64,000 nucleotides of DNA, from IMG/VR virus record IMGVR_UViG_3300005077_000565, positions 96,001 to 160,000 of that record; one strand, given 5' to 3'. Positions 23,347 to 28,796 of the stretch are shown here, in pieces (the first letter of the stretch is position 1; each line of letters starts with the position of its first letter). The translations under genes and the position numbers were made by a program. This DNA is from a virus. Under the pieces are notes generated by a model that ran no database searches, had not been told where the DNA came from, and saw only the letters and a list, made by a program, of their open reading frames with translations.

Positions 23347-25989
23347 TCAACCAAAATCAAATAAATCACTGAAGGTATTCTTTTCACTGGCACTCATTAG
23401 GTCCCAGTTCATAACGCCCAGGAGGTTGTCAATTTTCTGTGTAATGATGGCATCCTCCATGGCCTCGTCGTCAAAGGGCAAGTCCTTGAACCATTGCGGT
23501 ATTCGTTTTTCGTCGGTGGGTATACCGATACTGGTCATTCCCAGTGGGTTTGATTTGAGTTTGCACACAATAGTTTTCATACCATCAGTGATCTCCATGC
23601 TATAGGAATCACTGTTCATCTTGCGTAGACGGTTATAGTTGATGGCAGCCAGAGCGTGTCCAACACCACACTTACCGGTCTTTTCGTAGATTTTGGTGTG
23701 ATTGGTTAGATTGTTCACACGCTTGGGTGTGCCCTTTTCCCAGCTGGGCATCTGACGGAATGGTTTACGGAACTCTTTGATGCGTTCAATAACACTGCGT
23801 TCGCCCTGCCCGGTCAGTGTCATAACCAGCAATTCATTTAGGAAATCCTGTATGTATTTGGGTGTGTCACTGCGTTTAAGGTCCAGACCCATGGCTTTGA
23901 TCTTTCCAGGTTTACCTTCCTGATCTTCACGATAGCCTTCGTTATCATATACTAGGATAGCATAACGTTTTTTAGTAATGAAGATACCGGCTAGACCTAC
24001 AATTTCTCGACCAGCGGCAATAATTTTACCTAGCTCAGCGGGGCAATTGTGACCCTGATTCATATATTGACTAAATGTATCGTTGGCAGCTTCACAGACT
24101 GCGTCGTAATATTTTACAACACTGTCACGAGTCCATTCTAGTTCACCGCGTTGAATTTGGTCCTTGAGTACTGGGTATGCGCTGAAATAACAAGAGTCAG
24201 TGTCGCCGTAGATAATACTGCGTCCCGTGTGATTATATTCACCATCAATGATGCGATTGACTTCAGCCGCCATGTGTCGAGCAATACAACGGCCAGTCAG
24301 TGTAGTACTCTGCCCTAGACGTTGATCAAAAAAGCGACAACCGGCATTAAGTAGAGCACCGTATAGACTGTTTAGGTTAATCTTTTTAACCAGCTGACGC
24401 TTGTCCCAGAATGCATATTGTTTATCATCAACACCCTTGAAGCTCTTGGCTTTTTTCTGTAGTTCTTTACGTTCAGCGTACCAGCGTTCTAGTAGACCAG
24501 GAATCACACCCTGTACATCATGACGGAAGATTGTGGCATTGGCACTCAAGATCCAGGGCTGGCCGCTTAAAAACACTAGATCATATATTTCAGCCCCGGT
24601 GGCCTGAATACTAGAGCCATCTTCAAAATCAACTACAAGAATAGTCGAACGATCCTTGTCCATGATTAGCTCATACTCTGGACAGGCAAAACGACCTTCC
24701 CAGGCTTCAGACACCGTTTTATGGCTGGCCAAAAGTTCTTCAGTCAGCGTTTGTCGCACCTGGCCCACAATGGTTTCAGTGCTCATGTTGCCACTTCTGA
24801 GAATCGACGGGTACAAGCTGTTCAAGTCCATGCTGCCAATCCACTCGTGCATGCCTTTGACTGGTGTAGCCACGTATGCACCAGCTGCCTGCGTGCTGCC
24901 TTCATGACTGCGCTTGTCTGGAACTTGCATGCCTCGACGATGTGCTTCGTTGATAATAGCCTGTTCAGTCTGAGCCACGGCACCCATGGTGGTCTGCAAC
25001 AGCACGGTGTTGGCGTGCGCCAGGACGTTGGCTAGATCAATGAACTGAAGTTTTTTGTCTAGTTTAACCAGCAAGTCCACGTCCTGACGGTTATAGCCGA
25101 TAAACTTTTCAAAGTCATTGTTATATAACTGGTCCAGTGTACCTTCGTATTCTACTTTATGTTCTTTGAGTTCGTATTCGGCAATGGCATCTAGACTGTA
25201 GCTATGCATTTCATGGTAAGTATACTTGCGATACAGTTCCAGATAGTCCAGGTGTACACGCCCTACAGTTTCATAGGTTTCCTGAATCTTACCAAATTTT
25301 TCATATTCTTTGCGCTTGGGGTACTGATCCCAGAGGCAGAATTTTCTAGTATATTCTTTGCCTAGAACACGAGCAACTCGATTGACCAGATAGGGCACGT
25401 CGAACCCCTCACTGTTCCATCCGCTGATGACGTCAGCATCATCAATCAGCTCCAGGAATGTGGTCAGTAGATCTTCTTCGGACTCCATGAGCAGAGTGTC
25501 AGGGAATTTGTCTACAATGGCTTGCGCCTGATCGGCAGTTAATGTTTTTGGCGCTCGTACCAGACAGATAGTGCGCTCCAGCCAATTCAAATGAACTGCT
25601 ACTGCAGTCACTGGGTTAAAGGGGTCGCTGGGATCAGCAAACCCTAGTTCTTTGTTGAAGTCAACCTCAATGTCGAAAAATACAATGTGTAGGTCTGGTG
25701 CGTCGGCATTTAGATAATTTTCCTCAATACAACGGAATACTGGATTAATATCGCTCTCGTAGAGTTGCTTGTGGCTATATATTTTCTTCTCACGCTGAAA
25801 AATCTTGCCATTAGTAGTAACCACACGTGTCAGTGGCTCACCCCAGATACTTTTAAATTTTCCCTTGGGGTCGGGATAGTAGAATACATAGCGTGCTGGG
25901 AATTGCACATATTTTCTAACACCATCGCGGCGTTCCACAATATTGATCACATCACGATTGCGATCAATAATACCATCTACATAGCTCAT
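23347..25989 (-). CDS. Family B DNA polymerase
   Basis: Exo DIE, WN..FD, YN..D; pol DLNSLYPS, KxxxNSLYG, YGDTDS, KKRY. Confidence 0.97.
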   Translation of the reverse strand: MSYVDGIIDRNRDVINIVERRDGVRKYVQFPARYVFYYPDPKGKFKSIWGEPLTRVVTTNGKIFQREKKIYSHKQLYESDINPVFRCIEENYLNADAPDLHIVFFDIEVDFNKELGFADPSDPFNPVTAVAVHLNWLERTICLVRAPKTLTADQAQAIVDKFPDTLLMESEEDLLTTFLELIDDADVISGWNSEGFDVPYLVNRVARVLGKEYTRKFCLWDQYPKRKEYEKFGKIQETYETVGRVHLDYLELYRKYTYHEMHSYSLDAIAEYELKEHKVEYEGTLDQLYNNDFEKFIGYNRQDVDLLVKLDKKLQFIDLANVLAHANTVLLQTTMGAVAQTEQAIINEAHRRGMQVPDKRSHEGSTQAAGAYVATPVKGMHEWIGSMDLNSLYPSILRSGNMSTETIVGQVRQTLTEELLASHKTVSEAWEGRFACPEYELIMDKDRSTILVVDFEDGSSIQATGAEIYDLVFLSGQPWILSANATIFRHDVQGVIPGLLERWYAERKELQKKAKSFKGVDDKQYAFWDKRQLVKKINLNSLYGALLNAGCRFFDQRLGQSTTLTGRCIARHMAAEVNRIIDGEYNHTGRSIIYGDTDSCYFSAYPVLKDQIQRGELEWTRDSVVKYYDAVCEAANDTFSQYMNQGHNCPAELGKIIAAGREIVGLAGIFITKKRYAILVYDNEGYREDQEGKPGKIKAMGLDLKRSDTPKYIQDFLNELLVMTLTGQGERSVIERIKEFRKPFRQMPSWEKGTPKRVNNLTNHTKIYEKTGKCGVGHALAAINYNRLRKMNSDSYSMEITDGMKTIVCKLKSNPLGMTSIGIPTDEKRIPQWFKDLPFDDEAMEDAIITQKIDNLLGVMNWDLMSASEKNTFSDLFDFG

Positions 25990-26210: not shown

Positions 26211-26485
26211 GTCATAGCCCTCGCGAATCCAAATATATTAACAAATGCGAAGTAACCTGTCAACAACAGCGGCCAGACTAGTTTTCTACGATAGTAGGCA
26301 ACGACTGCTGTAACACTACCGACAAAAAATCCCGGATACACCAGTGTAAGATCAGGATCACGTGCGGTGATAGCCAGTGTCAGACTTGCCGACACAGTGA
26401 ATACAAAACTTACTACCTCTAACCAGAAGCTAGTGGTGTCAGTTTCGTAGCTGTGTCGCCAAAAATTAATTATACGCTGAATCAA
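26201..26485 (-). CDS. Small 3-TM membrane protein
   Basis: Three hydrophobic segments; resembles 35205-35495. Confidence 0.7.
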   Translation of the reverse strand: MIQRIINFWRHSYETDTTSFWLEVVSFVFTVSASLTLAITARDPDLTLVYPGFFVGSVTAVVAYYRRKLVWPLLLTGYFAFVNIFGFARAMTWL

Positions 26486-26736
26486 AGTGTACGTCCGACT
26501 TTTTCTAGAATAACTTCTAGTTCGTCAAATTCTTCACGTTTCTTGCCGAATTCGGCTTTGTAGGCAATATTGATTGCCTTGTTAAGTACTGCTGGTTTGA
26601 TTTCCAGTTCCTCGGCCACGGCAGTGACAGCATCCTTGAGACCGTCACGCAGAGCCTCCATTTCACTTTTTACCTGAATGCCTTCATTGATAATCTGCTT
26701 TAGTTTAGTTACGTCTGCTTCACCAAAGGTTTTCAT
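26482..26736 (-). CDS. T4 DsbA/GapR-like dsDNA-binding protein
   Basis: 84-aa helical, LKD....AEEL.IKP..LNK.I.IAYK pattern. Confidence 0.6.
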   Translation of the reverse strand: MKTFGEADVTKLKQIINEGIQVKSEMEALRDGLKDAVTAVAEELEIKPAVLNKAINIAYKAEFGKKREEFDELEVILEKVGRTL

Positions 26737-26834
26737 GTGTGTAAATCTCCGTTTAATTAAATTGAACAATACAAAATACCAGGACAGTATCTTGCATGTT
26801 CAGATTATACAACGGAAATTTGAAAAAGCAACTG

Positions 26835-27110
26835 TTATTTTTTTCTAGATTCCAGTGCCGCAATTCTAGACTCTAGATCGTCTATTTTTTCAGCTAGATT
26901 GGGTTCTTGCTGGCGCCAGGCATCCACTGGTTGATCCAACCAGCGCCAGCCGTATCTTTCTCTGAAAAAGTCCAGTAGTTGATCAAATTTTCGATAACCC
27001 CAGATGCCCAATTTAGTATCTTTGAGGTAGGCCAACGCGGTTGCGCCGACAATCGAACCTAGAATAGCAGTGTAAATCCAGAGGGTGTCGTCAAAAAGTC
27101 TTGATAGCAT
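26835..27110 (-). CDS. Membrane-anchored hypothetical protein
   Basis: N-terminal TM, C-terminal coiled coil. Confidence 0.7.
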   Translation of the reverse strand: MLSRLFDDTLWIYTAILGSIVGATALAYLKDTKLGIWGYRKFDQLLDFFRERYGWRWLDQPVDAWRQQEPNLAEKIDDLESRIAALESRKK

Positions 27111-27122
27111 ATTAATATATTG

Positions 27123-27218
27123 TTAGTGCTCACTTTTAACATATACTCGGTAGCGAATCTTTCCATGTTAGCCCAGCAGCCGGGCGCCCTCGCAACTAAG
27201 TGCGGTCCTAAGGGTGTT
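27123..27218 (-). ncRNA. Candidate structured RNA, family unrecognised
   Basis: Three stem regions whose imperfect pairs are G-U only on the minus strand; fills an unusually long, GC-rich intergenic gap. Confidence 0.55.
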
Positions 27219-27220
27219 CT

Positions 27221-27859
27221 TTACTTCCAGGCAACTAATTTAAACCGTTCTTCAACGATTCCGAAATAGTTACACTTCCAGGCACTCTGCCCAAAAAAAT
27301 CTAGGTTAATCCACTGATCTTTATGTGCTATAAGGTATTTAGCGCCGTCAATCCAGTCAATATTACGTAAAATTTTCTCGGCTGTGAATTTATTATCCAC
27401 TGCCTCCTGGTAATCAAAACAATCGTATTCCCAGTGTAATAATTCAAAGCAATTACCACTGCGATCCACGTAGTCCAGACTAAAATCCAGACCCCACTTG
27501 GGTTTTAAATTTATTAATTTGTAACATAATGGTACTACCCCGGCCCAACGAGATAATTCCTCCAGTGCCGGCCCAGTGTAGCCCTTACGCTCAAAAAGTA
27601 AACTATGATTCAATACCGGGCCCGACACTGACTCATCTTGTAAGAACCAGGGTTTTTTAATTGCCAGCTGATGTTCGCGATGATTGCTGTATGCGGTCTG
27701 ATTTGCATCAGCATATAGTTGTTCGATGGGTGTTAGTTCATAGCCGTTCTGATCAAATAAATGAAAGTCCTTGGCAATGGGTGGAAAAGACTTGCCAATG
27801 GGAACATCCCAGAACCCATTGGCATCGAATAAATTGTCAGAACTATATATGGAATTCAT
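27221..27859 (-). CDS. Hypothetical protein
   Basis: 212-aa ORF. Confidence 0.8.
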   Translation of the reverse strand: MNSIYSSDNLFDANGFWDVPIGKSFPPIAKDFHLFDQNGYELTPIEQLYADANQTAYSNHREHQLAIKKPWFLQDESVSGPVLNHSLLFERKGYTGPALEELSRWAGVVPLCYKLINLKPKWGLDFSLDYVDRSGNCFELLHWEYDCFDYQEAVDNKFTAEKILRNIDWIDGAKYLIAHKDQWINLDFFGQSAWKCNYFGIVEERFKLVAWK

Positions 27860-27883: not shown

Positions 27884-28723
27884 TTAAACGATTCCCAGTG
27901 CACGCAACGATGCAGGACCAACAATACCGTCAGGGACTAATCCTTGGCTGCGCTGCCAGGCCATGACTGCTTTTTCTGTACCAGGACCAAAATTACCATC
28001 AGCAGCCAAGCCTAGTGCCTGTTGCACTGCTACTACCGTTGGACCATTGCTTCCACGCTTGACAGTTTCATGTGAAACCTCTGCTGGTTGCCAATCACCA
28101 CCTAAAATGTGCAGAGCATGTTCGTAATGCTTCTTACGATCTTCCAGCCCAATGGTCCCGCCGTTGATTCTTTTGGTCATACCGAGAATATCGCCGGCAT
28201 CGGCCCACTTATTCAGTTTATTGACATCCCAGAACCAGCATGCGCTCTCGAGTGCACCTTTTTTAGTGCCCAGATACTTTATAGCATCATCAATGCTGAT
28301 ACTTAAACTTTCGGCAAATTTTGAATAATTATCATGACCAGTGAGCTGTATTACACCACGTCCACGATACTTCCATCCATCACCACTGGCAGTGTCGCCG
28401 TTGCCCATGCGATTTGCGTATACAATATTGGCAATTCTTTCTGGTTGGCGATGGTATTGCTGTGCATCACGTCCAGCCTTGACAAAGTATTTGGGGAATA
28501 CTGCGTTCAGTGAAGTTGCACTGTAATTTAAGTTCTCTTCGAGAACTCTGAAATTTCCACTTTCATGAGCACACTGCGCGATAAACCCAGCGACACGTGG
28601 AACGGTGTTGATATCATAGTGTGGGAAAATTTCATACATGGCCTCAAACCATTGATCAGCATCATTATTGCCATGAAGAATTTCTCTAACTTGCTCCACA
28701 GTAAAATCAAACTCAAAACTCAT
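27884..28723 (-). CDS. Endolysin: GH19 domain + peptidoglycan-binding domain
   Basis: FIAQCAHESG, ENLNYS, YRGRG.IQLTG..NY, TKRINGG; C-terminal DG.FG..T..AV..WQ...GL..DGIVG. Confidence 0.93.
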   Translation of the reverse strand: MSFEFDFTVEQVREILHGNNDADQWFEAMYEIFPHYDINTVPRVAGFIAQCAHESGNFRVLEENLNYSATSLNAVFPKYFVKAGRDAQQYHRQPERIANIVYANRMGNGDTASGDGWKYRGRGVIQLTGHDNYSKFAESLSISIDDAIKYLGTKKGALESACWFWDVNKLNKWADAGDILGMTKRINGGTIGLEDRKKHYEHALHILGGDWQPAEVSHETVKRGSNGPTVVAVQQALGLAADGNFGPGTEKAVMAWQRSQGLVPDGIVGPASLRALGIV

Positions 28724-28769
28724 GTTATCTCCTTGCGTACATTTTGTACGTATATATTTATTTTCCATC

Positions 28770-28796
28770 AAAGAAAAGCCAGATTAATCTGGCTTT
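28770..28796 (-). terminator. Rho-independent terminator
   Basis: AAAGCCAGATTAATCTGGCTTT palindrome plus T tract. Confidence 0.7.

Follow-up and report, generated by a model that had tools for sequence, protein, structure and literature searches.

What is encoded in a 110-nt gap between two protein genes of a giant phage whose minus-strand transcript appears to fold into several consecutive stems? The gap lies in a 168-kb IMG/VR virus record, judged to be approximately 47% complete, between a 212-aa ORF and a 91-aa membrane-protein ORF (Table 1). The 64-kb stretch of DNA analyzed here, which we call the window, corresponds to bases 96,001-160,000 of that record, and its genes are almost all on the minus strand. 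The DNA polymerase places the phage as a distant relative of the Rak2, GAP32, PA5oct and Atu_ph07 giant myoviruses (43-49% identity). An initial reading made from the letters and open reading frames of the window (hereafter, the sequence-only reading) had proposed an unnamed, multi-stem RNA on the minus strand, resembling a riboswitch, ribozyme or small RNA (sRNA). A replication origin was considered and rejected, as there is no GC-skew switch.

Every helix proposed in the initial reading (P1, P1a, P2 and the outer part of P3) is indeed present on the minus strand where it had been placed. ARAGORN finds no tRNA or tmRNA gene in the window, in agreement with the assertion that the element is not a tRNA. 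The lack of a U-tail is borne out as well, with no terminator-like site on the minus strand between 26400 and 27900, so that the element does not have the form of an intrinsic terminator, and the ATG at 27110 has no Shine-Dalgarno (SD) sequence in front of it, as had been observed. Folding energy, which had been suggested as a check, spoke against the element: the minimum free energy is -24.5 kcal/mol versus -27.1 +/- 3.4 for shuffled sequences (z = +0.76), a fold no better than chance, and single-sequence folding beats shuffles on neither strand. Given that the single sequence folds no better than its shuffles, support for a real fold was drawn from relatives of the element.

Existing catalogs and databases did not supply these relatives. 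Comparison with Rfam, also suggested earlier, leaves the element without a match to any Rfam 15 family: no family reaches its gathering score in the 64-kb window, a permissive search of 551 nt around the gap (E <= 10) returned one chance miRNA match (E 4.7) outside the element, and the loci of 12 relatives gave nothing at E <= 1. With no Rfam family matching the element even at E <= 10, the link to preQ1 or SAM that had been raised is unsupported. Megablast and blastn searches of the 1.6-kb region against GenBank phages found no match, a canonical member used as blastn query returned chance matches only, and searching the literature, whether for the motif letters or for the topic, turned up no relevant work.

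When the loci retrieved via the 212-aa protein were searched with the gap in nhmmer, the matches were weak yet collinear, their distance from that protein's gene varied, and four conserved blocks emerged: CCUUAGGAC, GGCUGCUG, GAUUCGCUACC and AAGUGAGC. An exact pattern made from three of the blocks matches at least 120 IMG/VR stretches, and a looser pattern added more. In total, 193 distinct instances were collected, approximately 190 of them distinct IMG/VR phage stretches; because the family members are related, these counts are not independent events. The block 1 core, CCUUAGGA, is present in every instance, but it also served as the search anchor. Covariance model R2 scores the window's element at 61.4 bits (E 6e-13), its sole match in the 168-kb record, which thus holds a single copy. 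Single copies are also found in four of five other large records. One 352-kb genome, which is complete, has a further, divergent copy (L376:1533-1620, corresponding to G064:C1:76932-77019) that keeps P2, the tail and UCGCUACCUU, part of the P3-apex block, and has a different P1 loop without block 1.

To place the family among cellular genomes, a single genome from each of 185,579 bacterial and archaeal species was searched, and the survey yielded two real instances, both on phage-like contigs (L365, CAZHPL010000057.1; L367, NZ_JBBAKG010000001.1) filed under Bacteroidota metagenome-assembled genomes (Lishizhenia and Haliscomenobacter). The second of these contigs, 183 kb in length, also encodes phage dsbA-like and DNA polymerase genes, and both look like giant-phage contigs that were binned with bacteria. 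A third match, in Salinimicrobium (L366), lies inside an ORF and was rejected as chance. The element is thus essentially phage-only. Among cultured phages, Pseudomonas phage PA5oct has a member at MK797984.1 115,466-115,561 (L362:1501-1596; model R2, 35.7 bits, E 2e-6), where it occupies an unannotated gap between gene EST35_0189 and an intrinsic terminator. The four published ncRNAs of PA5oct lie at other positions (PMC7318152). The element was not found in nine other cultured giant phages, nor in four large marine or freshwater relatives picked by protein homology.

Anchored folding of the members gives one order of parts: an A-rich lead, P1 (with block 1 in its loop and often P1a), P2, P3 and a tail, with P1, P2 and P3 abutting without linkers. 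P1a is found in most members and is missing from the minimal forms, which at 68 nt are the shortest in the family. RNAalifold on a plain MAFFT alignment missed P1 and P3, whose register shifts between members, and recovered P2 alone, a problem cured by seeding a covariance model with nine members of equal length and then using it to align 85 diverse members. In this 85-member alignment, 92.4% of the cells in paired positions are paired (63% in shuffles), double-sided changes number 450 (134 in shuffles) and affect 16 of the 19 pairs, and the covariation score is 0.627 versus 0.155 in shuffles (0 of 500 reach 0.627) and 0.04-0.12 with slid partners, all of these covariation figures being somewhat inflated because the alignment was fitted to the model. 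P2, with 99.4% of its cells paired and three pairs that change on both sides, covaries in the unfitted MAFFT alignment as well. Across the family, G-U or U-G pairs number 151 versus 24 for A-C or C-A, and this excess of wobble pairs identifies the gene-sense strand, minus in the window, as the folded strand, which the sequence-only reading had inferred from the window's own imperfect pairs.

Table 1. Parts of the RNA element and neighboring features in the window, in the order of minus-strand transcription
Feature	Position	Strand	Remarks
212-aa ORF upstream of the element	27221-27859	-	Stop codon 27223-27221 directly adjoins the element; function not assigned
Whole RNA element, ~95 nt	27124-27220	-	Covariance models R1 and R2 match end to end
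P1 5' strand, CCCU	27211-27214	-	Pairs with 27187-27190; all 5 P1 model pairs change on both sides in the family
Conserved block 1, CCUUAGGACCG (P1 loop)	27203-27213	-	Exact complement of E. coli 23S rRNA 1920-1930
P1a, optional hairpin within the P1 loop (CGCA / UGCG)	27191-27204	-	
P1 3' strand, AGGG	27187-27190	-	Partner of 27211-27214
P2 hairpin; loop GCUGC supplies the 5' strand of the pseudoknot	27171-27185	-	Covariation of loop and tail
P3 hairpin; outer stem UAACAU / AUGUUA (27170-27165 with 27142-27137)	27137-27170	-	Double-sided changes in all 8 model pairs
Conserved block 2, UUCGCUACC, at the P3 apex	27149-27157	-	Exact complement of E. coli 23S rRNA 1929-1937
Conserved 3' tail, AAGUGAGC	27128-27135	-	AGC 27130-27128 is the partner of GCU 27180-27178 in the P2 loop
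91-aa membrane-protein ORF downstream of the element	26835-27110	-	Variable 'cargo' gene before the dsbA-like gene
Promoter-like TTGCTT-N16-TATAAT before the dsbA-like gene	26804-26831	-	Directly follows the stop codon of the 91-aa ORF
T4 DsbA-like DNA-binding protein gene	26482-26736	-	PF11126 and phrog_639; likely start ATG 26736
Family B DNA polymerase gene (T4 gp43-like)	23347-25989	-	phrog_262, E 1e-197

Beyond the three hairpins, base pairing joins the P2 loop to the 3' tail and encloses P3 in an H-type pseudoknot. The canonical form joins loop GCU with tail AGC, and two further pairs are possible across a bulged G. Compensatory loop and tail variants occur in several members: GCCAC with GUGGC in five (L076, L077, L080, L298 and L351), GCCCC with GGGGC in three (L329, L330 and L344), CCCAC with GUGGG in L278 and GACU with GAGU in L287. 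A different pseudoknot had been proposed from the window, between UUAGU in the P1a loop and ACUAA in the bases after the tail (here CUAACAAUAU), and across the family it performs no better than permuted partners. The inner pairing drawn within P3 (AUUCG with CGAGU) has a mixed standing, being present in the window as a local alternative that is peculiar to it: the P3 loop AUUCGCUAC stays open in 120 of 127 relatives, where it is closed by a stem of 2-4 bp, and the window has a single consensus closing pair. The fold is therefore a scaffold of three hairpins and a pseudoknot that presents two invariant, single-stranded blocks, one in the P1 loop and the other in the P3 apical loop. With homologs found and covariation clearly present among them, the check that had been set for a real, unnamed structured RNA comes out in its favor, and the window's element is confirmed as a member of a genuine new RNA family that is not in Rfam 15, a widespread, strongly covarying and uncataloged class of pseudoknotted RNAs of approximately 70-100 nt. 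The loop-tail pseudoknot was missed in the sequence-only reading, as were two further properties of the family: a fixed site upstream of dsbA-polB and the 23S complementarity of the loops.

Several ribozyme classes consist of small, pseudoknotted, highly conserved intergenic phage RNAs, a description that also applies to this element, and a new self-cleaving class that processes the polycistronic transcript is one conceivable function. No Rfam ribozyme model matches, including those of the hammerhead, twister, pistol, hatchet and HDV-like classes, and three serial hairpins with a loop-tail pseudoknot and an optional P1a do not fit the nested double pseudoknot of HDV. Moreover, the members share no cleavage-site context upstream, where there is an A-rich run only, and nothing else in the data favors catalysis, which makes a ribozyme very improbable.

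The genomic context of the family combines variable immediate neighbors with one fixed landmark. In approximately 70 of the 105 instances with a scorable upstream frame, the upstream ORF ends 3-13 nt before the core. Neighboring proteins fall into 45 clusters upstream and 58 downstream, with ferritin-like, desaturase, radical-SAM, GATase-like and GIY-YIG proteins among the examples. The T4 DsbA-like gene is located downstream on the same strand, 27-4831 nt away, in 135 of 193 instances, and a DNA polymerase gene likewise in 129 of 193; neither ever lies upstream of the element or on the other strand. In PA5oct, 100 kb separate the element from polB. In the 40 instances with the dsbA-like gene as the immediate neighbor, a -35/-10 promoter, AGGAG and ATG stand between it and the element. 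No conserved promoter was found upstream of the element, only the A-rich run.

In the window, the 91-aa ORF is an insertion ahead of the promoter of the dsbA-like gene, and all 70 loci found to carry relatives of this ORF lack the element. The promoter-like sequence was missing from a consensus promoter scan because of its weak -35 box. The DsbA-like protein matches PF11126 with E 0.0017 and 19 bits, below the family cut-off of 25. On the minus strand, GGAG at 26750-26747 precedes ATG 26736, so the protein is probably approximately 84 aa in length, versus 95 aa in the mechanical ORF call. A 295-aa endolysin-like protein (27884-28771, minus strand; phrog_181, E 2e-78) is encoded two genes upstream of the replication block.

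This arrangement bears most directly on the possibility that the RNA acts in cis on a read-through transcript, either as the aptamer of a riboswitch or as a nut/put-like site that a phage protein recognizes, and controls the passage of polymerase or ribosomes into the cargo genes and dsbA-polB. The stems covary as expected of an aptamer, the H-type pseudoknot with its invariant loop and junction bases is aptamer-like, and the element keeps its site upstream of dsbA-polB (135 of 193), never downstream of the block or on the opposite strand. Also consistent with regulation in cis are an intrinsic terminator within approximately 15 nt after the element in L002, L228, L229, L244, L288 and PA5oct, of which L288 alone has a tail that overlaps the terminator stem, and the scarcity of SD-like sequences in front of ORFs whose start lies no more than 40 nt beyond the tail (13 of 75). 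However, a sigma-70-type promoter and AGGAG precede the dsbA-like gene in the 40 instances noted above, leaving the main conserved neighbor independent of read-through, and the immediate neighbors form 58 unrelated clusters. No expression platform was recognized in most members, including the one in the window, the PA5oct element is 100 kb from polB, and the complementarity to rRNA described below would be left unexplained. The element does not occupy the 5' UTR of functionally related genes (58 downstream clusters, and an intervening promoter in at least 40 instances), and because the block's own promoter often lies between the element and dsbA-polB, it is no classical 5'-UTR riboswitch. The context is thus not that of a classical riboswitch serving the next gene, nor that of a terminator, and we consider a cis-acting regulator of this kind unlikely.

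Two minor features of the sequence after the tail were also recorded. SD-like sequences precede 40 of 46 ORFs located behind an intervening promoter, compared with the 13 of 75 that start within 40 nt after the tail; the idea that the element substitutes for an SD sequence was dropped, as the contrast with a crude window-wide figure of 29 of 71 is too weak. TAAATA directly follows the tail in approximately 14 relatives; with a late promoter in mind, it was sought in the window, where just five ORF starts have it in the preceding 25 nt and none of the 71 larger ORFs does.

Exact matches to the annotated rrsH-rrlH operon of E. coli K-12 (NC_000913.3) give the two exposed blocks a common denominator. 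At the level of sequence, both are complementary to segments of 23S rRNA domain IV: in the window, 11 nt of block 1 match 1920-1930 and 9 nt of block 2 match 1929-1937, all by exact Watson-Crick pairing. The two targets adjoin, running from the 3' strand of helix 69 through the junction to the helix 70 loop, and by a rough estimate the chance of a second conserved 9-mer falling within approximately 20 nt of the first is of the order of 1e-4. Family-wide, block 1 matches 10-17 nt and the P3-apex block 8-11 nt, the latter inside 1927-1937, with the block 2 loop type carried by approximately two thirds of members. At least 11 contiguous complementary bases are present in block 1 of 187 of the 193 instances, though only 8-9 bases are invariant, and a short 3' extension of the match is offset by a 3-nt 5' extension in 36 of 47 members versus 12 of 146 others. 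This trade of 5' for 3' extension fits selection on pairing length, not on a fixed motif. A minority of P3 loops instead complement 23S 1966-1976 (9-11 nt), the 3' strand of P1a in some members is the complement of 23S 1908-1916, and some members resemble the antisense of helix 69-helix 70 over approximately 24 nt.

The longest match in whole-element shuffles is mostly 8-10 nt, reaching at least 11 in approximately 5% and at least 13 in 0.3%; the adjoining targets of two separate loops and the replacement loops directed at the same domain are more telling than match length. An energy-based duplex search against rRNA was not discriminating (P1 loop, -21.3 kcal/mol versus -19.0 +/- 2.0 for shuffles), and the case for 23S pairing rests on exact contiguous matches and adjacency, not on duplex energies. 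The 17-mer target is identical in E. coli, a Salinimicrobium isolate and 29 Bacteroidota genomes, these being all of those in which it was found among 61 sampled. The 168-kb record contains no sense copy of the 23S target, making a phage mRNA target unlikely.

The family therefore has a conserved seed that is complementary to a conserved target, as an sRNA would, and of the three functions first suggested for the element, the sRNA-like one fits best, the riboswitch being weakened by the context and the ribozyme lacking any pointer. The explanation that we favor, tentatively and at somewhat short of even confidence, is that this phage RNA may base-pair with host 23S rRNA at helix 69-70. Helices 69-71 lie at the subunit interface, near the decoding center. 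The RNA would be co-transcribed with the upstream genes and would pair with 23S rRNA of the host, either nascent or in free 50S subunits, with a loop-loop contact to the helix 70 loop as the likely first step and a subsequent spread into helix 69. With lower confidence, we suggest that pairing at the subunit interface might disturb 50S maturation or subunit joining, and, again less confidently, that a disturbed 50S might give the phage a handle on host translation. Put more broadly, and held somewhat more loosely than the pairing itself, a large clade of giant phages may encode a natural antisense RNA against the universally conserved 23S helix 69-71, carried on a pseudoknot scaffold, that would block, mark or capture host large subunits. 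We know of no described precedent for an RNA-based takeover of the ribosome in bacteria or phages.

Several observations argue against 23S pairing. Approximately 20% of members have P3 loops (types b and c, AGUCGUG and CCGGGAAU) for which no good rRNA complement was found, and the divergent second copy in the 352-kb genome is without block 1. A closed 9-nt hairpin loop cannot pair over its full length unless P1 opens, and the P3 apex in the window is closed by a single base pair, such that the alternative local pairing could hide block 2. The target is itself largely base-paired or buried in the mature 50S subunit. Finally, one gene without a promoter of its own would need a high copy number to titrate ribosomes.

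This last point would be eased if the RNA were a guide whose loops place a nuclease, methyltransferase or pseudouridine synthase, of phage or host origin, on 23S rRNA at approximately G1929-U1931, in the manner of bipartite H/ACA guides: a catalytic guide works at low copy, which fits a single gene without a strong promoter of its own, and the two complementary blocks do cover one uninterrupted target and come together at a single point. Box motifs are absent, however, and no conserved partner gene adjoins the element among the 45 upstream and 58 downstream clusters. We also know of no modification at the junction position in bacteria, and a guide function appears improbable.

A further alternative would have the rRNA match as a relic of antisense rDNA captured long ago, or as chance, within a structural 3'-end element of the upstream operon that acts as an exonuclease block, processing site or insulator. 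The likeness of some members to antisense helix 69-70 over approximately 24 nt could reflect such an origin, and the element does begin right after the upstream stop, often with a promoter or terminator directly after it. But a relic would not keep its loops exact while the stems drift, nor would it gain a new loop complementary to the same rRNA domain. In addition, ordinary hairpins do the job of a 3'-end element elsewhere, and some members carry a separate terminator too. We give this explanation little credence.

A second possible contact lies in the small subunit. Within the P2 hairpin, CGGCUGCUGG (27172-27181, minus strand) is an exact 10-nt complement of E. coli 16S rRNA 518-527, the 530 loop, and the match reaches 10-11 nt in relatives; an invariant 9-mer would match 16S by chance in roughly 2% of cases. 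The 530 loop lies near helix 69 in the 70S ribosome, and an RNA paired at both places could be docked in the intersubunit space, touching both subunits. Since variants of the P2 loop lose the 16S match yet keep the pseudoknot, we count the 16S pairing as unproven.

Among known systems, the putative 23S-pairing RNA most closely recalls CopA/CopT of plasmid R1 and RNA I/RNA II of ColE1, which are likewise folded RNAs that show complementary bases in their loops and start to pair with a structured target by contacts between loops. In these systems the RNA is encoded in cis and acts on an mRNA or primer of the same locus, whereas the putative target here is host rRNA, the guide sequence is split over two loops on a pseudoknot scaffold, and pairing is putative. 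The preQ1-II, SAM-II/V and fluoride aptamers are of similar size and share the pseudoknot topology, with invariant bases in loops and junctions; the element differs in having no Rfam match, no consistent 5'-UTR position, no recurring expression platform and unrelated neighbors. Box H/ACA and C/D guides of archaea and eukaryotes carry rRNA-complementary segments on a conserved fold, bipartite in H/ACA as in the element, which by comparison has neither box elements nor partner proteins; to our knowledge, bacteria and their phages do not use guide RNAs for rRNA. In the T-shaped 3' translation enhancer of turnip crinkle virus and in the T7 epsilon sequence, a viral pseudoknot or a short complementary tract contacts the ribosome, acting in cis on viral mRNA through shape or through pairing with small-subunit rRNA. 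Unlike these, the element is complementary to large-subunit rRNA and has variable flanking genes.

Should the pairing with 23S rRNA prove real, this would be the first known case of a bacterial virus whose natural RNA is directed at rRNA itself, and it would add an RNA-based mechanism to the proteins by which phages seize host translation. With a target that is invariant across bacteria, the principle would be independent of the host, and it could inspire antisense tools against helix 69-70. Even if the 23S reading is wrong, the family is an uncataloged RNA class that marks a fixed landmark in giant-phage genomes. The cultured member in PA5oct, a phage of Pseudomonas aeruginosa PAO1, makes the question directly testable. 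What this window contributes is a loop-tail covariation table, the dsbA-polB synteny, a compensation test, the replacement loops, the negative cases and the PA5oct member itself.

A separate feature of P1 sets apart a small subset of the family. In PA5oct and six further members (L164, L234, L270, L278, L280 and L332), CCUUAGG in the P1 region pairs in cis with a downstream CCUAAGG. The latter has the same letters as the 23S target, so that P1 of this subset reproduces the proposed RNA-rRNA duplex within the RNA itself.
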